From the NCBI GenBank assembly GCA_002952755.1, contig CP025011.1:600001-632000 (forward strand): a DNA stretch of 32,000 nt. Direction: 5' to 3'. Source of the stretch: Candidatus Saccharimonadota bacterium. GTDB taxonomy: Bacteria > Patescibacteriota > Saccharimonadia > Saccharimonadales > UBA4665. A program made the translations under genes and the position numbers. This document shows, piece after piece, positions 786-10,383 of this stretch; the stretch's first letter is position 1; each line of letters begins with the position of its first letter. The notes under the pieces were generated by a model. The model was given only the letters and a program-made list of their open reading frames with translations. It searched no databases and was not told the origin of the DNA.

Positions 786-3700
786 GCTGAACGGCTAGAC
801 TCACCTCCCAAAGCTCCTATAGATCAAAGCATAACTGCTGCTCATTCTAAAACCCCACCTACAGGCCTCAACACGCCAATGAAAACAGACTATGCACCTG
901 CTTTGTCGACACTTCAATCTAAGAACAAGTTAGCGGCTGACTATTCTCCTGCAGTTAAGGGAGCGTCATCAGTTTTAGGCATGACGAATAATACAACTCC
1001 GTCAAATAGCAGCGCAGCTGGCCTGCAATCTCCAGTCGTGCCTAAAACAGGTAAGACCGAGGAAATCATTAGCAAGCGAACCGCTAACTCGACTACGACG
1101 AAAAATGAAGACGGTAGCTATACCGTCCGAAAGTACGAAACCTCCAAATTCTACAAGCGGAATAACGACTGGAAAACGATTGACACTAAACTTGTAGAAG
1201 ACACCGACTCTGGTGATGCTGGCAATGTTCTTGGTGATATTTTTGGTAAGGCAGAATCATTATTTAAATCGACAAACACTTACACGGTGAAACAAAACGA
1301 CTGGCTGGCACGCTTTGCTCCGAGCGGCTCCAAGCAAGCCATGGTCCGTATAAAGAAGGGCAATCAGGAGGTTGGCTTCTCGCCGCAAAATGCTAAGGAT
1401 GGCGTTACGCCTATTGTTACAACTGACGATAACGGGGAGCAGACAGTCCATTACTATGATCTCTGGCCGGGCGTAAATCTTGAGTACATAGTCAAAGCGG
1501 ATGAACTCAAGGAAAACATAGTACTCAAAGACAAATTGGCCACAAGTGACTTTGCCTTTAATGTTACCGGCGCGACACTCAAGAAACCGGCAGCGAAGAC
1601 TGAAGTTGCCGGACCTATATACGATATCGATGGTGCATTGGGGAATGAATTTGCAGTAGCGCCCTTGGCTGTCGTGCTAAACGCATTTGGTGTCGAAGAT
1701 GCCGGTCCAGCCTTGCAGCACTCCTACGCGGATGGCGTGTTCAAGATTTCACTAACCCATGACTATGTATCTAATCTTCCGGGTAAGGCATTCCCTTTGG
1801 CAATTGACCCAACATATGTGCACCAAAATCACTTTGGGACACGTGCTGGCGGTAACTACGTAAGTTTTAAAAGTGACGGATACGTGTGCGACGCAACAAT
1901 TTGTAACCCATATTTCGGATCGGTGCTTGACTCTAATTACATATGGCGCAGCTGGCGCAGCATGCTTTTTTCTGACTATAGTGAAGTTAAAGGGCATCAG
2001 CTCAATAATGTCACGTTCCACTTCACACAGCGCCTTGGTCTGTCCGTATCTGGACCTACCGATCCGCATGCGTTATATACCTGGCATGGTAGCTGTTTTA
2101 ACTATAATTGCCGGGGAGTCCAAGGTGGGTCGGGCGTTGTTGGTACATCGGGGGACATCGATGTTACGGCAATCTACCAAAACCGCATTGCCGCCGGTGA
2201 CTATGGAGCATGGCTTCAGTTAAGTGGTGAAGAAGGTACTTATACGAGCTATAAAAATACTGATCCGGATAATTCGTGGGTCCAATTTACATTTACGGAC
2301 GTGCTGCCAGCTCCTAATATAGTCACCCCGGCTAACGGGCAGGTGTATATTGACCCCCAAGTTTCATTTAGTGCCACGCCAGGCTTGACTAATCCGTCGA
2401 GTAACGCAGCCTTGCAGTATAATTTTTGCGTCAGTACGGGCCCGGCTTGTGCGGGAGCGGTTATGGTATCCAGTCCGCAGCCCAGTTCTCAGTGGACGAT
2501 CCCCGATGGTCTGTTGCAGGACGGCACTACTTATTATGTGCAGGCACAAACGTACGATACGAACTTACAGATATACAGTCCTTATGGCGTTGCGGCATCT
2601 TTCAAAATAGATAGTCGCACTGGCAAAGATAGCACACAGGCCTATGACACACTCGGCCCGGTATCGGTGGATTTAGCAACTGGCAATGTGAATACTAGTG
2701 AGGCAAGTCATACGAGCGCGGCCCTCGGTGGAACCATGGGCATCAGCCTTGATTACAATTCGCCAGTTAAGTCACGTCGTGGCTTAGTCGGGAAATACTG
2801 GAATGTAGTCGCAAACTATGCCGGTGGTCTACCGGCAGGTTCGCCGGATTTGACGAGAGTGGACCAAACGGTTGATTTTGATTGGCAGACAGGTTCGCCA
2901 TTAGCAGGCACTATAAACAACGATTGGATTTATGCAGCCTGGGACGGATTCTTTGTGCCTCAGACCACGGGAACTTACTATTTCGGCGGCAATAATGACG
3001 ACATGCTGAGCATAAAGGTAAACGGCCAACAGCTTTATTCAAATGGGGGCTGCTACAGTGGCGTCTGTTATGGCTCATCGATTAATCTTGCGGCTGGCCA
3101 GGCGGTGCCAATTCATATGGAGTACGAAGAAGTAACGGGTCCTGCCTATGCCCATCTGCACGTAAAGACTCCTGATAGTGTTGATCATGTTATGCCAGTT
3201 GATTGGCTACAGACGGGCGTTAGGCCGGTAACACAGAATACGGGTTTGACTGGTAAGTACTATAGAGACCCTAATGGCACTCACGATTTTACTGACTCAA
3301 ACAATACACTTCTCATGCAGCGTACCGATCCTGTTGTCAGCTTTAACTGGCAGAGCGGGCCAGCTGTGCCAGGCGGTCCAAGTGATAAGTTCATGGCGAG
3401 ATGGACGGGATACGTGACTGCACCCACTAGTGGAAGTTATGACTTTGGGACGGTTAGCGACGACGGAAGTCGCATCACGATAGGCACTAATAATACTCAA
3501 ATCGTAAACAAATGGAATGATGATGGCGGAACACCAGCGTGGGGTACGTATTCATTAGTAGGCGGTGTGCCGACCCCGATTACCGTTGACTATTATGAAA
3601 ATGGCGGCGGGGCGATGATGTACCTCAAGATGCGCGGCAATGGCATGGCCGAACAGATTGTGCCTACCAGTTGGTTATCGACGGGAGCCTCCGTGCTGCC

Positions 3701-6700
3701 GAGTGGCTGGGCGATGGGAATCGACGCTGACGGCAATCTGTCGTACGACCACCTCAAAGCAATGCAGAACAGCGTAGTACTCACAGATTCAACCGGCAGT
3801 ACTCACGAATACGTTTGGGATAACGATAAGCAGAACTACAAGCCGCCGGTTAACGAAGATGGCAATTTAGTGCGAAATGCTGACGGTACTTACACACTCC
3901 AGGACACCGATGGCCGTACGTATGTATTCAAGGCCGATGGTACGATTGATTCAGTTACTTCAGCTACTGACGACTTGAAGCCGACAGCGCTGAAGTATCA
4001 ATATGGCGGCACACCGTCGCACCTAATTGAAATAACGGACGGCGTAGATACCTCTCGCTGGGCTAGGGCCTACTACTACGGTGATACCGCCAATTGCCCC
4101 GCATCGGTAATTGGCTTTGACACTCCAGCAGCTGCGCTAAATAAACTCTGTGCCGTAACGACCAATGATGGCCGTACTACGTCGATCTACTACAAAGACG
4201 GCAATCTGGTGCGTATCCAAAAGCCGGGTAACGAAATTACCGATTACCAATATGATGCGCCTGGAAGAATCGTATCAATGCGAGATTCAGTTGCAAACGA
4301 CGCCATTGCGGCTGGAGTACGCACCGATGATGCTACCGTCCTGACGGCACTTTACTATGACGATCTAGGGCGGGTTATCAGTGTGACTGAGCCTGCTGCT
4401 ACGGCGGGTGCTGTCCGTTTGCAGCATAGCCTCGAATATCTGCCAGGCAACGGTACCTACTACGGAGCAACTCAGCAACGTACGGTAGGGGCAACAGAAC
4501 CAAACGGCTATGCGCACCGAGTCGAGTATGATAGCCTATACCGCACGATCGCCGATAAAGACATCGCTGGTCTCACCGATACTACTGCATGGGATCCTGT
4601 AAAAGATCTCATGCTCAGCACAACTGATGAGACTGGCCTTAAATCAACGACTATTTACGACGACGACGATCGTGCAATATCCCACTATGGTCCGGCACCA
4701 GCGGCCTGGTACGGAACAGACCGTAAACCGTCAAGCTCATATGTTAACCAAGTCCCGCATACCGACACGAACTATGATGAAAATATCCCAGGCATGGCAC
4801 TTGCATACTACGGATATGCCCCCACGAGCAAAGTATTAACTGGTGCTCCTAAGCTTCATACTACGAATATTCCTGGCGCAGCCACCGGCACATTTAGTAA
4901 CGATTTTGGTACAACTTCTCCGATAACTGGGGTAACGGACAATTGGGGCTTCCGGGCTACTGCTAAATTACGCCTGCCTCTGACTGGCAACTATACCTAC
5001 AGAATTGTTTCCGACGACGGCGTGCGACTCTATATTGACGATACGCTACAACTTGATGACTGGAACGCTGGCCCTACTCGTAGCCACCCCGCCGTTGGTT
5101 ACGTAAATACTGCCAATACTCTGCATCGTTTTAAGATTGAGTATTTCCACACCAACGACGCTACCAGTACAAATAACGCGAACATTACCCTGTATATCAC
5201 CCCTCCCGGTGGCGCAGAAACAGCCGTTAATCTTACCCAGTACTTCACACCTGATTACGATTTGGTAACTTCTACCAAGGAGTATGATTCGGCCATCGGG
5301 GATGCTACAGCCACAACCAACTACGGCAGCAGTCCGGAACTTGGCCTAGCGCAAAGCAAAACAGCCGATTCAGCAGGTCTCAACCTGACCTCCTCAAGTA
5401 CGTACGAAACTCAAGGTGCCACTGGCAGCTTACTTCGTCAGACTAGTTCTACTCTTCCTGGCGGTACTACCTCTACCTACAGCTACTATGGCGCAACCGA
5501 AACACGGCAGAACCCCTGCAACACTTCACAAACCTTCAGACAGGCGGGTATGCTAAAACTAAAGACGGAGGCGGACCCAGACGGCGCTGGTTTACAGGCG
5601 GCACGTACCACCGAAACCGTGTATGATGATGCCGGAAGAGTGATAGCAACTCGCTTAAACAGCGACCCTTGGACTTGTACGACCTACGATGCACGTGGCC
5701 GTGTAACAGAAATCGACATTCCAGCCTTTAATGGTGCAGCTGCAAGGACAGTACGAAACGATTATGCTGTCGGCGGAAATCCATTTGAAGCTACAACTTG
5801 GGATGGCAGCGGCTGGATAGTAACTTGGATAGATCTGTTAGGGCGTACTACCAAATACCGCGACGTCTTTGACGACGAGACCATAACCACCTATGATAGC
5901 CTTGGTCGTATGACCCAACAACAAAGCCCTGCGGGGACCCAAACGTATATCTACGACAACTATAATCGGCTCACACAGCAACAGCTCGATGGCACCACAT
6001 TGGCCAATGTCTACTATGATGCATATGGCAGGATAGATCACGTCAGCTATCCAAATGCCGGCAATCTTGGCCTCGCCAGTATAAGCAGGGATGCTAATGG
6101 CCGGACAAGCGGGCTGACATATAACACCAGTACCAATACGCCTGGTTCTAATCTAGTGCCAAATCCATCACTTGAGACAGTAACAGCCGGCCAGCCAGAT
6201 AACTGGAACCAGGATCACTGGGGTACCAATACGACGAACTTTGCCTATTCCACTGACGCTCACACCGGTACTCATAGCGGCAGGGTAGATATGACCAGTT
6301 ACACCGATGGGGACGCCAAATGGGACTTTACCCCGGTTAACATCAGCGGTGGTACCAATTACACCTTTAGTGATTACTATAAATCAAATGTTGCCACCAA
6401 TGTCTTCGTGCAATATACCTACGCCGACAATAGTACTTCATATCAATGGCTCGGTAATCCGGCGGCCTCTAGCGGTAGTTGGGCGCAGGCAACCTACAAT
6501 TTTACTGCACCGGCTACAGCCATTAAAGCATCGATATTCCATGCGATAAACGCGGTCGGCTGGATGCAGTTAGATGATATGGACATGCATTTAACGTACG
6601 GGTCGGCAGCGGTTTCTGACGCTGTCACCCGCAGCCAGTCCGGACAAATCCTGAACGACATCGTAACTGCTGGCTCCAACAACCTCTGGAGCACCTACCA

Positions 6701-8111
6701 GTACGACAAAGCCGACAGATTAACTAGCGCGGCGATCGGGCCGCACACATACAGTTATGGCTTCGGGACAGAAAATGCAGCTTGTGGCAGCGGAGCCGGA
6801 ACAAATGTGAACGCTGGTAAAAACGGCAACCGTACCACGCAGACCATAGATGGCACAACTACTTGGTATTGCTACGACAATGCCGACCGGCTAATTAGCA
6901 GCAGTGATCCCACAGCCGATTACAGTGAATACGACCCTCATGGCAACATGACTTACCTTGGTACCGGCACCATACCACTGCGTCTGTGTTATGACTCCAG
7001 TGACCGTAATTCTTGTCTGGTTAACTACAATAGTTCGGGAAATGGCTCGGCCACGTACTATAGTCGTGATGTCCAGGGCCGTATAACCTACCGTGAAAAT
7101 GACACCATAACGGCCCGCAATTGGAACGCGAATTCTCAGATCTGGTACGATTACACGGGTGCGGGCGACACCCCGGATTACGCCCGTGACCCCAATTGGA
7201 ACATTGTAGAGAAATACATCCAACTTCCTGGTGGTGCAGAGCTGACAATCCGTCCACTGCAACCCACCGCTGCAGCCAAAGCCGTCTACTCACTCCCCAA
7301 CATCCACGGGGATACCCTGCTCACTACTGACGGCACCGGCACCAATACCTCCACCGGCAATGGCCCAGCCAACAGTTTTACCTACGATCCCTTCGGTAAT
7401 ATATTACCTGGCAGTACTCAGCCCAGTAACATAGCTGGTACTGGTTCCTTTGGCTGGCTTGGTCAACATGAGAAGTTCACTGAAAGTACTCTAGCTCTCG
7501 CACCAATTCAAATGGGCTCAAGAGTATATCTGCCGACGCTTGGACGATTCACGAGTGTAGACCCGGTGCAAGGCGGCACCGAGAACAATTACGTCTACGT
7601 CCTCGACCCAATTAACGAGTTCGATCTTGATGGCAACTTTGGCTGGGGCAACCTCGCGAAGAGCGTGACAAGGGTCGCGACGATTGGCTCGTTTGTACCG
7701 GGGCCGATAGGTTTAGCTTGCACTGGTGTAGCTGTGGCGGGCAATCTGGCACAAGGACACTACAAGGAAGCCGGACTTGCTGCTGTCGGGGGCGCCTTCG
7801 GAGTGGCAAGACTTGCAACGAAGGCGACGGCGATTGCAAGAGTTGCAGCGGCAACTTCTAAAGATGGCAATGCAGGCTTCAATATGCTCAAGGCGCATAC
7901 TATTACTGCTCGACTTGCTGGAAAGATATATACTTCGGGATCTAATGGGCAGAAAGGCTTTCGCATCGCTACTAAGGCCAGTGGAGCAAAGATCGCAAAT
8001 TTCGAACAGTTTAGGCGTAGCATCACGTATGCTAGCAGAAATAGTACTTTAAGGCGATTCCCGAATAGAAGTCAAAATCTACACCTTAGAATAGGAGGAT
8101 GGTTATGGTAA
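651..8111 (+). CDS. Giant secreted Rhs/YD-repeat polymorphic toxin (WapA-style, Sec signal) with PA14 and CBM-like modules and a variable C-terminal toxin tip
   Basis: A 7461-nt ORF of 2486 aa with a GTG start after an SD. It has an N-terminal signal peptide and an S/T/P-rich linker. There are many YD repeats: YQYDAPGRIVSM, YYDDLGRVISV, VEYDSLYRTI, VYDDAGRVIAT, TYDARGRVTEI, TYDSLGRMTQQ, IYDNYNRLTQQ, YYDAYGRIDHV, YQYDKADRLTSA, CYDNADRLISS, EYDPHGNMTYL. The RHS core reads FTYDPFGN...GWLGQHEKF...GSRVYLPTLGRFTSVDPVQGGTENNYVYVLDPINEFDLDGN and is followed by a non-repeat tail. Confidence 0.95.
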   Translation: MGVSVFRVPKTFINSFLRAGKRLSALFLCFFFLLTSTIPTLSAYAAERLDSPPKAPIDQSITAAHSKTPPTGLNTPMKTDYAPALSTLQSKNKLAADYSPAVKGASSVLGMTNNTTPSNSSAAGLQSPVVPKTGKTEEIISKRTANSTTTKNEDGSYTVRKYETSKFYKRNNDWKTIDTKLVEDTDSGDAGNVLGDIFGKAESLFKSTNTYTVKQNDWLARFAPSGSKQAMVRIKKGNQEVGFSPQNAKDGVTPIVTTDDNGEQTVHYYDLWPGVNLEYIVKADELKENIVLKDKLATSDFAFNVTGATLKKPAAKTEVAGPIYDIDGALGNEFAVAPLAVVLNAFGVEDAGPALQHSYADGVFKISLTHDYVSNLPGKAFPLAIDPTYVHQNHFGTRAGGNYVSFKSDGYVCDATICNPYFGSVLDSNYIWRSWRSMLFSDYSEVKGHQLNNVTFHFTQRLGLSVSGPTDPHALYTWHGSCFNYNCRGVQGGSGVVGTSGDIDVTAIYQNRIAAGDYGAWLQLSGEEGTYTSYKNTDPDNSWVQFTFTDVLPAPNIVTPANGQVYIDPQVSFSATPGLTNPSSNAALQYNFCVSTGPACAGAVMVSSPQPSSQWTIPDGLLQDGTTYYVQAQTYDTNLQIYSPYGVAASFKIDSRTGKDSTQAYDTLGPVSVDLATGNVNTSEASHTSAALGGTMGISLDYNSPVKSRRGLVGKYWNVVANYAGGLPAGSPDLTRVDQTVDFDWQTGSPLAGTINNDWIYAAWDGFFVPQTTGTYYFGGNNDDMLSIKVNGQQLYSNGGCYSGVCYGSSINLAAGQAVPIHMEYEEVTGPAYAHLHVKTPDSVDHVMPVDWLQTGVRPVTQNTGLTGKYYRDPNGTHDFTDSNNTLLMQRTDPVVSFNWQSGPAVPGGPSDKFMARWTGYVTAPTSGSYDFGTVSDDGSRITIGTNNTQIVNKWNDDGGTPAWGTYSLVGGVPTPITVDYYENGGGAMMYLKMRGNGMAEQIVPTSWLSTGASVLPSGWAMGIDADGNLSYDHLKAMQNSVVLTDSTGSTHEYVWDNDKQNYKPPVNEDGNLVRNADGTYTLQDTDGRTYVFKADGTIDSVTSATDDLKPTALKYQYGGTPSHLIEITDGVDTSRWARAYYYGDTANCPASVIGFDTPAAALNKLCAVTTNDGRTTSIYYKDGNLVRIQKPGNEITDYQYDAPGRIVSMRDSVANDAIAAGVRTDDATVLTALYYDDLGRVISVTEPAATAGAVRLQHSLEYLPGNGTYYGATQQRTVGATEPNGYAHRVEYDSLYRTIADKDIAGLTDTTAWDPVKDLMLSTTDETGLKSTTIYDDDDRAISHYGPAPAAWYGTDRKPSSSYVNQVPHTDTNYDENIPGMALAYYGYAPTSKVLTGAPKLHTTNIPGAATGTFSNDFGTTSPITGVTDNWGFRATAKLRLPLTGNYTYRIVSDDGVRLYIDDTLQLDDWNAGPTRSHPAVGYVNTANTLHRFKIEYFHTNDATSTNNANITLYITPPGGAETAVNLTQYFTPDYDLVTSTKEYDSAIGDATATTNYGSSPELGLAQSKTADSAGLNLTSSSTYETQGATGSLLRQTSSTLPGGTTSTYSYYGATETRQNPCNTSQTFRQAGMLKLKTEADPDGAGLQAARTTETVYDDAGRVIATRLNSDPWTCTTYDARGRVTEIDIPAFNGAAARTVRNDYAVGGNPFEATTWDGSGWIVTWIDLLGRTTKYRDVFDDETITTYDSLGRMTQQQSPAGTQTYIYDNYNRLTQQQLDGTTLANVYYDAYGRIDHVSYPNAGNLGLASISRDANGRTSGLTYNTSTNTPGSNLVPNPSLETVTAGQPDNWNQDHWGTNTTNFAYSTDAHTGTHSGRVDMTSYTDGDAKWDFTPVNISGGTNYTFSDYYKSNVATNVFVQYTYADNSTSYQWLGNPAASSGSWAQATYNFTAPATAIKASIFHAINAVGWMQLDDMDMHLTYGSAAVSDAVTRSQSGQILNDIVTAGSNNLWSTYQYDKADRLTSAAIGPHTYSYGFGTENAACGSGAGTNVNAGKNGNRTTQTIDGTTTWYCYDNADRLISSSDPTADYSEYDPHGNMTYLGTGTIPLRLCYDSSDRNSCLVNYNSSGNGSATYYSRDVQGRITYRENDTITARNWNANSQIWYDYTGAGDTPDYARDPNWNIVEKYIQLPGGAELTIRPLQPTAAAKAVYSLPNIHGDTLLTTDGTGTNTSTGNGPANSFTYDPFGNILPGSTQPSNIAGTGSFGWLGQHEKFTESTLALAPIQMGSRVYLPTLGRFTSVDPVQGGTENNYVYVLDPINEFDLDGNFGWGNLAKSVTRVATIGSFVPGPIGLACTGVAVAGNLAQGHYKEAGLAAVGGAFGVARLATKATAIARVAAATSKDGNAGFNMLKAHTITARLAGKIYTSGSNGQKGFRIATKASGAKIANFEQFRRSITYASRNSTLRRFPNRSQNLHLRIGGWLW
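2781..3216 (+). other. PA14 domain 1
   Basis: GLVGKYWNV...TRVDQTVDFDWQTGSP...AAWDGFFVPQTTGTYYFGGNNDDMLSIKVNGQ...HMEYEE matches the PA14 pattern (GLxGxYW/Y, xVDFxW, rWxG, tGxYxF, DDxxxlxi). Confidence 0.8.
3243..3686 (+). other. PA14 domain 2
   Basis: GLTGKYYRDPNG...RTDPVVSFNWQSG...DKFMARWTGYVTAPTSGSYDFGTVSDDGSRITIG...VDYYENGGGAMMYL is a canonical PA14 motif series. Confidence 0.85.
4791..5262 (+). other. PA14 domain 3, inserted between blocks of YD repeats
   Basis: GMALAYYGY...DNWGFRATAKLRLPLTGNYTYRIVSDDGVRLYIDD...HRFKIEYFH. YD repeats lie on both sides (ending about 4700 and restarting about 5600). Confidence 0.75.
6150..6590 (+). other. CBM4/9-like carbohydrate-binding (jelly-roll) module inserted in the YD-repeat region
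   Basis: NLVPNPSLETVTAGQPDNWNQDHWGTNTTNFAYSTDAHTGTHSGRVDMTSYTDGDAKWDF...GGTNYTFSDYYKS...WAQATYNFTAPATA...GWMQLDDMDM. The NPSFE/xxxPxxW...GxxSxxV...Y.fS.w.k pattern is typical of CBM_4_9-type modules. This is assigned by motif only. Confidence 0.55.
7377..7637 (+). other. RHS repeat-associated core domain ending in a variant cleavage motif
   Basis: FTYDPFGNILPG...GWLGQHEKFTES...IQMGSRVYLPTLGRFTSVDPVQGGTENNYVYVLDPINEFDLDGN. The canonical cores end in DPxGL, whereas here the ending is D-L-D-G-N. Confidence 0.85.
7638..8108 (+). other. Variable C-terminal toxin tip (157 aa), family not recognised
   Basis: The position immediately after the RHS core is where polymorphic toxins carry their effector. 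The sequence is FGWGNLAKSVTRVATIGSFVPGPIGLACTGVAVAGNLAQGHYKEAGLAAVGGAFGVARLATKATAIARVAAATSKDGNAGFNMLKAHTITARLAGKIYTSGSNGQKGFRIATKASGAKIANFEQFRRSITYASRNSTLRRFPNRSQNLHLRIGGWLW. I could not find any known catalytic motif in it. Confidence 0.7.
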
Positions 8112-8473
8112 GTGTAAAACTGAATAATGTATTCATCGAGCACGGGGAAAAAGAACTCCTTTCAAAATCTTTGGGTCAAAAAAATACGCGTTGGTATGCT
8201 GCCGTTGCCTTGGATTTAACTGATCTATCTTCAAATCAGAAAATCGCTGAATGGTTCTACCTAATGTTATGTTCGCCTGAGTACGCTAAACAACCTTTTA
8301 AAAGGGGCCCGCATATCGAAACCGACCAACCCTATGTCGTGGTCCAAGACCAATTAGATATGGACAAGGCATTAAAGATCGCAGAAGACAAAGTGAAAAT
8401 TATTCAGGCCGATAACTGGGACGAGTTCTATACTAAAATGAGCGAAGAATTCCTATATGAAGATAAGGCCTAA
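8105..8473 (+). CDS. Putative cognate immunity protein (acidic, Imm8-like motif pattern)
   Basis: AGGAGG at 8093-8098 lies 6 nt before ATG 8105. The ATG at 8099 given in the ORF track has zero spacer. The start overlaps the Rhs stop (ATGGTAA, TAA at 8109-8111). The protein has 21 D/E against 15 K/R. The motifs WFYLMLCSPEY, PYVVVQD and NWDEFYTKMSEEFLYED resemble my recollection of Imm8 family proteins (FxVxVCTPxW ... hLIV ... TWxEVxxKLxxxxxWEFEDY). Confidence 0.7.
   Translation: MVSVKLNNVFIEHGEKELLSKSLGQKNTRWYAAVALDLTDLSSNQKIAEWFYLMLCSPEYAKQPFKRGPHIETDQPYVVVQDQLDMDKALKIAEDKVKIIQADNWDEFYTKMSEEFLYEDKA
8192..8360 (+). repeat. Direct repeat copy 1 (169 bp, inside the immunity gene)
   Basis: By base-by-base comparison it is identical to 9211-9379 (offset 1019 bp). 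Confidence 0.95.
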
Positions 8474-8481
8474 ACTGAAAG

Positions 8482-8907
8482 ATGGTAAGTAATTCAGTTG
8501 ACGAAGTCATTCATAAAATTAAGCACGTATACGATGCTGATATATCAATCCAAAATGAAGGAAATCAGTTCATCGACAAAAGGTTAACTATTAAAGACCT
8601 ACATGATAATGGAGTTACGATAGAGCTTAGTTTTAACAGTGAGGGTAAGGCTTCTATGCTTCAGCTACTGGGCTTTAAAGACGCAAATTTCAATATAGCG
8701 GAAGAATATACAAGCAATACAATATTGGAAGCAGTTTTTTTGTTAATGCAGGGTGATTTTAGTATAAAAAGAAGCGTATTTGGCCGCCCGTCACTGCTCG
8801 TTAAACAATTTGGAATAAAATTTAAAGCGACAGGCGGCACTAGAGTAGACGTTGGACCATACGCAAACTCTGCCAGCAAGGAAGAATCTAAATACGCTGA
8901 CCTTTAG
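8482..8907 (+). CDS. Hypothetical protein (141 aa) in the toxin/immunity cassette; possible second immunity or accessory protein
   Basis: The ORF starts 8 nt after the immunity-gene stop on the same strand. It is AT-rich (about 35% GC in 8521-8580 by hand count). I see no recognisable motifs, signal peptide or TM segment. Confidence 0.6.
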   Translation: MVSNSVDEVIHKIKHVYDADISIQNEGNQFIDKRLTIKDLHDNGVTIELSFNSEGKASMLQLLGFKDANFNIAEEYTSNTILEAVFLLMQGDFSIKRSVFGRPSLLVKQFGIKFKATGGTRVDVGPYANSASKEESKYADL

Positions 8908-8937
8908 GACGCCAGCTTAGGGGAGTAAAATAACGGC

Positions 8938-9405
8938 ATGCGCATAGAAGACTTCGAAGCAGCTATAGCTGCTACTGGACTAGTCGGCGCAGGTGCAGTT
9001 ACTAAACTTGCCGCGAAAGCTGTAGATCATGCTGCCTTAGCTGGGAAGAGTGCTAATATAATTGCACGTGCAGCGGAGGGCGCTGGTGCCAAATTGGCAA
9101 GAGCTCAATCAAACTTGCCACTAGTGGGGAGTGCGAGCAGAGTTTTTAGGAGATATATCAGCTACAATGAAAAAATATGTAGTTCAGCATACCAAATAAG
9201 TCTAGGAGGATGGTATGCTGCCGTTGCCTTGGATTTAACTGATCTATCTTCAAATCAGAAAATCGCTGAATGGTTCTACCTAATGTTATGTTCGCCTGAG
9301 TACGCTAAACAACCTTTTAAAAGGGGCCCGCATATCGAAACCGACCAACCCTATGTCGTGGTCCAAGACCAATTAGATAAACTACAACCTGACTACTTGT
9401 TCTAA
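8938..9405 (+). CDS. Orphan divergent toxin-tip fragment fused in frame to a truncated copy of the immunity gene (probable recombination remnant)
   Basis: It has its own ATG with GGGGAG 12 nt upstream. Residues 1-91 (..ATGLVGAGAVTKLAAKAV...RVFRRYISYNEK...ISLGGW) align loosely with the last ~110 aa of the Rhs tip (..AGLAAVGGAFGVARLATKAT...EQFRRSITYASR...LRIGGW). Residues 92-147 are identical to immunity residues W-Y-A-A-V...VVQDQLD. The last 8 aa (KLQPDYLF) are unrelated. Confidence 0.6.
   Translation: MRIEDFEAAIAATGLVGAGAVTKLAAKAVDHAALAGKSANIIARAAEGAGAKLARAQSNLPLVGSASRVFRRYISYNEKICSSAYQISLGGWYAAVALDLTDLSSNQKIAEWFYLMLCSPEYAKQPFKRGPHIETDQPYVVVQDQLDKLQPDYLF
9211..9379 (+). repeat. Direct repeat copy 2 (169 bp, inside the orphan fusion ORF)
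   Basis: It is identical to 8192-8360. The 12 nt preceding it (taggaggatggt, 9203-9214, overlapping the repeat start) also occur at 8092-8103. Confidence 0.95.
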
Positions 9406-9639
9406 TATTTGCTATAATACTGCCCCAACCAAGATATTCTCTTTAGGAATTAATAGGTTTTCCCTCTGGAAACCGCCAAGCCATTGATGAGGATGTGAGC
9501 GCGGCGGCGGAGTATGGAGCCAGAGCCGTTAATCTTGAACATCATCAGCTGTTAAAATTAAGGTCTTTCGAGGTGATAACCTGAGGAGCGCGGCTATGAG
9601 CCCTTCGAGCATTTTCATCTTGCTTCTGCATCTGGAGAT

Positions 9640-10383
9640 CTACTTATCTAAAAACTCCTGTACCACATTCGCTAGAATCATCCCACCTTTTGTATTAAGA
9701 TGAACACCATCGACATGATATTTCCAACCATTCATTTCAGCTATTTCATCGAAACTATGACGCAGAATAAATTCACGCCAATAATAATCGCGAAAAAAGG
9801 AACGCCAACGAAATTCAGTAAACGCTTTACCGGGTGAAGCCTCTATTTGTTCTTCGAGTTTTTCGTAAAAGGGAATGTAGTCCACGCCTTCCTGTTCCGC
9901 AACTTCCTTGATAATGCCCGCGAACTCCTTTGCCAGCTGGGCGAGGCGGGCCTGGTTTGGGTTCCGGGAGTGCGGGTCCTCGCCGATAAGGGGCAGTGAG
10001 GTGAGACCGATCCGGGCGGAAGTCGTGGATTTCAGCTTCCTCACAATCGCCTCCAGGTTCTCGCGATACCACTCAGATGTGGGTTCGGTCGGTAGTCGTT
10101 TCCAGCGGGTCTCGACTCGCCTTACGATCGGAAATGCTTGGCAGAGGAGGTCGTTCCCGCCGGTGATGAGGACGACATAGTCCGGGTGGACGGCGATTGT
10201 CTTGTGCAGGCGTTGCAGCGTTTTGTAGGCCACATCGCCGCCGATGCCGCGGTTGACGAACTTGAGGTGCTCGTTCTGGGGGCGTCGCTCCAGCTCCTTG
10301 ATCCAGTTGAAGACGCCATGGGCGGCAGCAGTACTACTTCCCACACAGGCAACGATTCCTGATTGCTGATTTTGATCCTGCAT
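9640..10383 (-). CDS. SGNH/GDSL-family hydrolase (lipase or esterase-like)
   Basis: The SGNH blocks are present: VACVGSSTAAAHG (block I Ser), NRGIGGD (block II Gly), ITGGNDL (block III Asn), DGVHLN (block V His). GAGGGGG lies upstream of the ATG. Confidence 0.8.
   Translation of the reverse strand: MQDQNQQSGIVACVGSSTAAAHGVFNWIKELERRPQNEHLKFVNRGIGGDVAYKTLQRLHKTIAVHPDYVVLITGGNDLLCQAFPIVRRVETRWKRLPTEPTSEWYRENLEAIVRKLKSTTSARIGLTSLPLIGEDPHSRNPNQARLAQLAKEFAGIIKEVAEQEGVDYIPFYEKLEEQIEASPGKAFTEFRWRSFFRDYYWREFILRHSFDEIAEMNGWKYHVDGVHLNTKGGMILANVVQEFLDK

Follow-up and report, generated by a model that had tools for sequence, protein, structure and literature searches.

This study concerns the 3' end of an rhs toxin locus in a 32,000-nucleotide stretch of DNA from a Candidatus Saccharimonadota bacterium (GenBank contig CP025011.1, positions 600,001 to 632,000; hereafter the window, whose own numbering is used throughout), and in particular the open reading frame (ORF) at 8938-9405. 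This ORF is probably a composite and most likely non-functional scar. Its first part, here called tip 2, is most likely the former C-terminal tip of the main rhs gene, displaced by about 1.2 kb when other DNA was inserted at the end of the post-core pre-toxin (PT) segment. Its second part appears to be a recent copy of the middle of imm1, the immunity gene of the tip that the main gene carries today (tip 1), and not a partner of the displaced tip. The locus is a new example of a known phenomenon, the dissociated Rhs tip, with unusual decay features; it represents no new mechanism or system. On the plus strand the order is rhs, imm1, ORF141 and the orphan ORF, and the coordinates of all features are collected in the table below.

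The displacement is documented by comparison with L038, a metagenome contig of 226 kb recovered in a metagenome scan. Without gaps, this contig aligns with window 1783-7784 at 82.9% identity over 6002 nt, and its positions 6000-6116 align with window 8955-9071 at 88%. The intact L038 main gene reads ..GNLAQGHYAEAAIAATGLVGAGAVTKLAAKAVDHAALAGKSANIVARAV.. in frame and continues to ..GRHIDYGVGRGWR and a stop codon. Because this gene passes straight from the match ending at 7784 into the match at 8955-9071, the intervening DNA of the window is read as an insertion and the orphan as the former tip. A three-way alignment places the switch at GAAGCnGC..GCTGCT, that is, at 7767-7785 in the main gene and at 8956-8974 in the orphan, and the L038 bases that match the former also align with the latter. 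The orphan sequence before position 8956 resembles neither L038 nor any tip. GC content is 0.37-0.47 over 7785-9379 vs 0.50 for rhs, so that the region forms a low-GC trough. A first-pass annotation, made from the letters of the window, had proposed a displaced tip recording tip exchange at this locus, which is borne out by a related genome whose main gene still carries this tip in frame.

Features of the rhs locus, window coordinates (features of related loci are given by sequence)
Feature	Coordinates	Strand	Remarks
Main rhs gene, 2486 aa	651-8111	+	ends in tip 1 (..HLRIGGWLW, stop)
Post-core PT segment, NFGW..SFVPGPIGLACTGVAVAGNLAQGHYKEAGLAAVG	7635-7790	+	starts after DPINEFDLDG
Boundary segment GAAGCCGGACTTGCTGCTG (E-A-G-L-A-A)	7767-7785	+	last main-gene stretch aligning with L038
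Segment absent from L038	7785-8955	+	variable tip-1 tail, imm1, ORF141 and 48-nt spacer; probable inserted cassette
12-mer, copy 1, TAGGAGGATGGT	8092-8103	+	encodes (I)GGW of tip 1; holds GGAGGA Shine-Dalgarno for imm1
imm1, tip-1 immunity gene, 122/124 aa	8105-8473	+	ATG 8105 overlaps tip-1 stop; alternative ATG 8099
169-nt repeat, native copy in imm1	8192-8360	+	codons W32..D87 counted from 8099
ORF141, 141 aa	8482-8907	+	8 nt after imm1; no family match
Composite ORF, 155 aa	8938-9405	+	ATG start; nameless protein P0001 at NCBI
MRIEDF, start and 5 codons	8938-8955	+	without homology to any tip; 3' end of probable inserted cassette
Putative displaced tip, linker part (EAAIAATGLVGAGAVTKLAAKAVDHAALAGKSANIIARA)	8956-9072	+	88% DNA identity to L038 6000-6116, there in frame after main-gene PT segment
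Putative displaced tip, variable toxin tail (..KLARAQSNLPLVGSASRVFRRYISYNEKICSSAYQISLGGW)	9073-9213	+	related to P0020 and P0023, 49-62% identity over ORF residues 16-70
12-mer, copy 2	9203-9214	+	native (L)GGW and embedded Shine-Dalgarno of tip 2
169-nt imm1 copy	9211-9379	+	100% identical to 8192-8360; imm1 frame
7-codon ORF MLPLPWI, stop	9215-9238	+	5 nt downstream of retained GGAGG
Unique tail (K)LQPDYLF and stop	9380-9405	+	without detectable relative
Tip end/immunity start, L005			GGAAGGAGGTGGACAAGATGA
Tip end/immunity start, L006			GTAGGAGGATATAAACCATGGTAG
Tip end/immunity start, L009			CGGAGGAGATTTTAATG
Tip end/immunity start, L038			GTAGGAAGAGGCTGGAGATAA

The orphan left behind is short at its 5' end. 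Homology to rhs relatives begins at 8956, in agreement with the earlier statement that no RHS-core homology lies upstream. The ORF had, however, been credited with a start of its own, which does not hold: the ATG and the first six codons lie in non-homologous DNA, and the orphan is truncated inside the conserved PT segment. Just six codons (about 19 nt) of that segment are kept, together with no core fragment. At the boundary shared with the main gene only 13 of 19 bases match, so the orphan is not readily re-attached by homologous recombination.

The age of the displacement can be approached through the 39-codon linker, which differs from L038 by 14 synonymous changes and a single non-synonymous one (synonymous divergence, pS, 0.42; non-synonymous divergence, pN, 0.012). 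Long neutral drift would have produced many replacements, so this excess indicates either a displacement that is young compared with the split from L038 or a linker that is still constrained. It implies that purifying selection probably acted on the linker through almost the whole divergence from L038, and that the displacement would be correspondingly recent. At 9071/9072 (L038 6116/6117) the DNA match to L038, at 88% up to that point, ends abruptly, but the protein motifs (LPxVGxxS) run on. Such a pattern indicates a probable second mosaic boundary inside the tip, between the conserved linker and the variable toxin tail.

A full HMMER scan of 1.8 billion representatives yielded two real relatives of tip 2, P0020 and P0023, both of them orphan modules within toxin/immunity arrays; a profile built from tip 2 and these two recovered nothing further, and a word-indexed protein search with tip 2 returned the ORF's own record as the sole match. 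Compared with the tips attached to main genes in L038, L009 and L008, tip 2 is about 35 aa shorter. This shortfall fits decay, and a natural short variant is also possible, P0020 being another short-form tip that is likewise an orphan. As a side observation, P0023 (L006 4152-4511) starts at the same pre-toxin-end boundary (AAAGLIG..) and is fused directly to a core remnant of 8-10 residues (MATTNAAG). The classical orphans next to it have the same residues in their core, so an internal deletion is implied.

At the other end of the presumed insertion, the left crossover is less well placed. Synonymous divergence from L038 is 0.78-0.85 over 7425-7766 (0.85 at 7485-7766) vs an average of 0.59, with a nearly identical protein, and the PT segment carries the tip-1-family signature ACT, shared by the window and P0003, where L038 has VCS. 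These features are suggestive of donor DNA that included the PT segment, with a left crossover possibly near 7480. Similarly high synonymous divergence from L038 is seen at window 1785-2024.

The first-pass annotation had regarded the N-terminal part of the ORF as a shortened, diverged homologue of tip 1, and this claim is not supported. Between the two tips, BLASTP finds 13/50 identities with an E-value of 0.016, hhalign of tip 2 against the tip-1 profile returns a probability of 1.7%, and DNA alignment finds no similarity. When tip 2 is compared with the profile of the larger tail family, only 15 residues, EAAIAATGLVGAGAV, match significantly (E 8e-5), and they align exactly where the PT segment ends. 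The FRRxIxY element, which had been listed as shared, can be matched in at least two competing registers. The sensitive alignment that had been recommended as a check thus shows no significant similarity between the toxin domains beyond the PT segment, and what the tips robustly share is the pre-toxin end (EAAxAAxG) and a terminal module of Shine-Dalgarno (SD) sequence and Gly-Gly-Trp (GGW).

This terminal module is best understood at the nucleotide level. In related tips, the final codons of the toxin contain the ribosome-binding site of the immunity gene, whose start overlaps the toxin stop. The end of tip 2, CTAGGAGGATGG, is homologous to GTAGGAAGAGGCTGG of L038 (VGRGWR and stop) and to GTAGGAGGATAT of L006, each with an SD in its last codons; at the DNA level V-G-R-G-W-R and stop of L038 aligns with L-G-G-W of tip 2. 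Because the L038 and L006 ends align at that position, GGW is taken as the native C-terminus of tip 2, as had been claimed earlier, and the native stop probably lay one or two codons beyond it. A 3'-truncated tip, in which GGW would be an internal K-x-G-W-S motif, was considered and rejected, given the DNA alignment with VGRGWR of L038 and the fact that P0020 ends in HIDLLAGRRWTR and a stop. Several unrelated loci place the immunity SD in the last Gly-Gly/Arg-Arg codons of the toxin, with the immunity ATG overlapping the final Trp or the stop (window 8092-8111; L005 1100-1135; L006 4475-4510; L009 8540-8570; L038 6345-6380). The recurrence of GG(x)W at the toxin C-terminus may be due to this arrangement of nucleotides.

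The 12-mer TAGGAGGATGGT deserves the same interpretation. It occurs at just the two tabulated sites in the 32-kb window, where shuffles expect 0.00, and 9 of its 12 bases recur at the homologous tip end in the unrelated locus L006. It is therefore for the most part a conserved functional module, and neither a copying footprint nor a deletion microhomology. The 12-nt microhomology that had been proposed for the junction reduces to 4 nt: the 92-nt gap is bounded by a repeat of TGGT (8100-8103 and 8192-8195), not of the 12-mer.

The remaining observations on the junction were all reproduced, namely the ORF itself, the 12-mer sites, the 92-nt offset, the Trp-to-Trp junction and the ORF encoding MLPLPWI. 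A perfect direct repeat of 169 nt (8192-8360 = 9211-9379) overlaps the 12-mer by TGGT, so that the last four nucleotides of the second 12-mer copy are the first four of the imm1 copy. Anchored on both the 12-mer and this repeat, 8104-8195 (92 nt) is unrepresented in the second locus. The reading frame runs from ..S-L-G-G-W of tip 2 (GGW at 9205-9213) directly into W-Y-A-A-V of the imm1 frame; the present junction consists of window 9170-9210 followed by TGGTATGCTGCC. The copy ends at 9379, equivalent to 8360 and 113 nt before the imm1 stop at 8473. It comprises the middle 56 of about 122 residues, without the imm1 N-terminus, without the C-terminal third that includes NWDEFY and without a start of its own. 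The immunity segment had correctly been described as lacking a start and cut at its 3' end.

The identity of this piece decides how the fusion is read. The tip-2 relatives in L038, L005, L006 and L009 are each followed by immunity genes without similarity to imm1; the L038 immunity gene matches the two L005 immunity genes (E 5e-9 and 3e-7), and a profile of these tip-2-type immunity genes finds no match in imm1. No cognate immunity gene follows tip 2, and the imm1 fragment stands in its place. Since the 169 nt are 100% identical to imm1 beside a tip without DNA similarity to tip 1, they are not the relic of an old cognate pair. The same identity, together with the unrelated immunity family of the tip-2 relatives, shows that the piece was copied recently from the resident imm1, which is non-cognate to tip 2. 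Of the decayed, displaced tip/immunity pair suggested by the first-pass annotation, the displaced tip stands, while the decayed cognate immunity copy is contradicted. Likewise, the recommended search of related genomes for an intact second pair did reveal tip 2 attached in L038, but next to an immunity gene unrelated to imm1.

The same repeats could also have arisen by a longer route. In that case, unequal exchange at the 12-mer would have placed a full second copy of the tip-1 end and imm1 after tip 2 (a tandem duplication of 1111 nt), which would then have been trimmed by a 92-nt deletion between TGGT repeats and a larger 3' deletion. The 12-mer and the 169-mer are indeed collinear in both loci, the 12-mer is unique to the two sites, TGGT direct repeats flank the missing 92 nt, and an identity of 12 nt can support short-homology exchange. 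However, three events are needed where one junction suffices, no trace of the rest of the duplicated unit remains, and the 12-mer is mostly the conserved SD/Gly-Gly module, native in L006 and L038, so that no copying is required. This route is accordingly considered unlikely, though it is the most credible of the alternatives.

A perfect repeat at a junction is also a classic signature of misassembly, and the composite could in principle be a chimeric join at the 169-nt repeat in the source genome. The Logan unitig L039, found in 4 samples, is identical at 100% to window 8331-9240, a stretch that takes in ORF141, tip 2 and the first 30 nt of the repeat. Because it crosses the tip-2/imm1 junction, that junction is not an artefact of a single assembly. 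The unitig stops short of the junction at 9379/9380. The source contig is 1.45 Mb long, and an artefact is regarded as very improbable. The two perfect repeats stand 1019 nt apart. If they recombined, the 3' third of imm1 could be lost along with ORF141 and tip 2, and with it the immunity to tip 1, so that selection should act against this event.

Whether the composite ORF still does anything can be judged from what it retains. It has no Pfam or NCBIfam match, and protein searches find it in one genome only. The ORF is read as a remnant because it lacks the Rhs shell, most of the PT segment, part of the tail and both ends of the immunity gene, matches no family, is known from one genome, and has a GGAG 12 nt away, a distant site that is the nearest to its ATG. 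The predicted product would lack the shell needed for export, and the conserved GGAGG in the last Gly-Gly codons would now serve the 7-codon ORF only. In the opposite view, the ORF would be an expressed, functional toxin-immunity chimera acting as an intracellular toxin/antitoxin-like element or a decoy. No stop codon interrupts the frame at either junction, the ORF has the orientation of the operon and no terminator is predicted, and the distant GGAG precedes the ATG; the linker has accumulated 14 synonymous changes vs 1 non-synonymous change; and orphan Rhs toxins can reportedly be expressed in Salmonella (PMC7043789). Against this, the ORF takes its start codon from non-homologous DNA, its tip is missing the PT segment and about 35 aa that attached relatives have, and the ORF, present in a single genome, shows no conservation. 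In addition, the immunity piece lacks the Imm8-signature region (PMC3482391), matches no family and is non-cognate to tip 2. A functional chimera is thus thought improbable.

Scans of the window for Rfam families and tRNAs were empty, and the promoter/terminator scan found nothing above shuffles and no terminator between the operon and the ORF. The best promoter-like site of the region lies at 9389-9418 on the plus strand (CTGACT, an 18-nt spacing and TATAAT with TG; 10/12 matches). It overlaps the end of the orphan ORF and points into about 220 nt of non-coding DNA facing a convergent GDSL-lipase gene; the number of promoter-like sites in the region is not above shuffles. The non-coding DNA between the ORF and this lipase gene (9640-10383, minus strand) measures about 235 nt.

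A history of the scar can be proposed in the form of successive steps. In the first, which follows from the comparison with L038, the main rhs gene would once have carried the tip now at 8956-9213 directly after the PT segment. Incoming DNA with a different tip tail, imm1 and ORF141 would have recombined into the rhs gene, with a left crossover in conserved rhs/pre-toxin sequence and a right junction at 8955/8956. The old tip would thereby have moved downstream without core, most of the PT segment or delivery domain, and an ATG 18 nt upstream, in cassette DNA, would have come to lie in frame by chance. In the second step, we infer a recent illegitimate event that would have linked the old tip, which ended natively in ..GGA TGG T, to a site inside imm1 at TGGT, with a template switch, a templated patch or copy-and-paste as possible routes. 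The 169 nt of imm1 would have replaced the stop codon of the old tip and its unrelated immunity gene, and the second junction, at 9379/9380, would lead into unique DNA.

Homology-facilitated illegitimate recombination and microhomology-mediated template switching are general recombination routes in bacteria. The locus is like them in its homologous anchor within rhs combined with the non-homologous 8955/8956 junction, and in its 4-nt TGGT junction with locally templated filler DNA; unlike the documented routes, the mechanism is deduced here from end-points only. A homologous left anchor with a non-homologous right junction would be better explained by homology-facilitated illegitimate recombination than by a circle integrating within 19 nt.

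Several observations weigh against this account of a displaced and decaying tip. The low pN/pS of the linker could equally mean ongoing constraint, and the direction of change rests on one relative, L038, at 83% identity, with no downstream synteny between it and the window. The left crossover is not sharp, as sliding windows of identity and pS are heterogeneous (0.27 to 0.89), and the route by which imm1 was copied is not resolvable from one sequence. Independent unitig support is limited to the first junction, that at 9379/9380 lying outside L039. Finally, 155 codons remain open across two junctions on the same strand as the operon, with no terminator predicted, so transcription and some translation are possible.

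The proteins on either side of the exchange can be placed only partly in known families. The main protein has an N-terminal signal/transmembrane segment, three PA14 domains, GLEYA, RHS repeats and an Rhs-associated core, and its membership of the RHS family is supported by PF05593 (E 2.7e-7) and TIGR03696 (40.4 bits vs a cut-off of 32.5). Residues 46-121 of imm1 weakly match Imm8 (PF15586), with an E-value of 2e-5 and 25.1 bits, below the Pfam gathering score of 27, and the Imm8 profile has no match to the orphan ORF at E<=1. The Imm8 signature is a C-terminal W-[D]E-aromatic region (Zhang et al. 2012, PMC3482391), to which the C-terminal NWDEFY of imm1 (W-D-E-F) is an inexact match. The gene resembles Imm8 in the profile region, but differs in its sub-cut-off score and in a partner toxin that is not recognisable as Ntox7. 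In L001, an imm1 homologue of 27% identity directly follows the tip-1 homologue P0004 (52% identity), so immunity genes diverge at least as fast as tips.

ORF141 was considered as the cognate immunity gene of tip 2, moved upstream. It is collinear with the tip-2-type immunity family over 98 columns and shares the motif ..LxxxxxG[DN]hxhK+.., but the similarity is not significant (BLASTP E 0.22-2; hhalign E 0.02-0.03, probability 2%). ORF141 may be an orphan immunity gene. The tail KLQPDYLF of the composite ORF was considered as the last eight codons of a lost cognate immunity gene (cf. ILRPYTIS and LFTPRTIY, each before a stop), and neither DNA nor tblastx comparison supported this.

Among 17 database relatives of tip 1, the PT segment is highly conserved and the tails vary, and in an hhalign comparison of the two tail families it is the sole match (probability 99.8%). 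No Pfam model covers it. In the GTDB species-representative scan it occurs mostly in metagenome-assembled genomes (MAGs) of Candidatus Saccharibacteria, and also in some Streptomyces and other Actinomycetota. The segment (..SFIPGPIGMVASGVAVAGNLAQGN[WY]KxAAxAAxG) is glycine-zipper-like and joins the Rhs core to variable, small, basic tails in the Rhs proteins of Saccharibacteria and Actinomycetota; it was seen at window 7635-7790 and in L008-L012, L001 and L003. In L003 (236-3380), two Y1 transposase genes of the IS200/IS605 type lie just upstream of the PT-bearing orphan tip P0007, and within 5 kb of contig upstream of that tip there is no full-length rhs gene. In L001 (8147-12822), the contig with the tip-1 homologue, ClpP and rpoB are each called as several short consecutive genes, which suggests frameshifts, assembly errors or a non-standard genetic code.

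Because two independent orphans, the present one and P0023 in L006, start exactly at the PT-end boundary, a bolder proposal can be formulated. The end of the segment (GAAGCnGC..GCTGCT, E-A-A-x-A-A) would be a preferred joint for core-independent tip exchange in this Rhs family of the Saccharibacteria/Actinomycetota type. In addition, translation of the displaced tip, with its almost purely synonymous linker changes, would continue and give a toxin-immunity chimera that has a role in the cell. Taken as a whole, this proposal is improbable.

In enterobacteria, displacement of rhs C-termini yields dissociated, or orphan, tips (Jackson et al. 2009, PMC2935791; Poole et al. 2011, PMC3150448). The present orphan is like those dissociated tips in that it differs from the attached tip and a relative has the same tip attached to the main gene, in that it is probably silent and degenerating, and in that its low-GC trough matches the pattern described (PMC2935791). 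Unlike classical orphans, it carries no core or hyperconserved-motif fragment, so homologous recombination has no usable homology with which to re-attach it, and where its cognate immunity gene once stood there is a fragment of the resident, non-cognate gene. Classical orphans with core fragments do occur in the related loci L001, L006 and L009. Another comparison is offered by the orphan Rhs of Salmonella Typhimurium, which is reported to be expressed and to act as a toxin-antitoxin-like module (PMC7043789). In both cases the delivery part is absent and the orphan adjoins a full-length rhs gene. The Salmonella orphan keeps an intact toxin domain and a cognate immunity gene, whereas here a shortened tip is fused to a non-cognate fragment.

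For annotation, the 155-aa "hypothetical protein" is best treated as a remnant. For the biology of these toxins, the locus offers a clean, datable Rhs tip replacement in a poorly studied group, in a Sec-type, PA14-rich main protein whose relatives come mostly from Candidatus Saccharibacteria MAGs. The recurrent C-terminal Gly-Gly-Trp is tied to the embedded ribosome-binding site of the immunity gene, and secondary short-homology events can splice pieces of resident immunity genes into old modules. A displaced tip can also be left without any core homology, in which case it is a dead end, whereas classical orphans form a reusable reserve.

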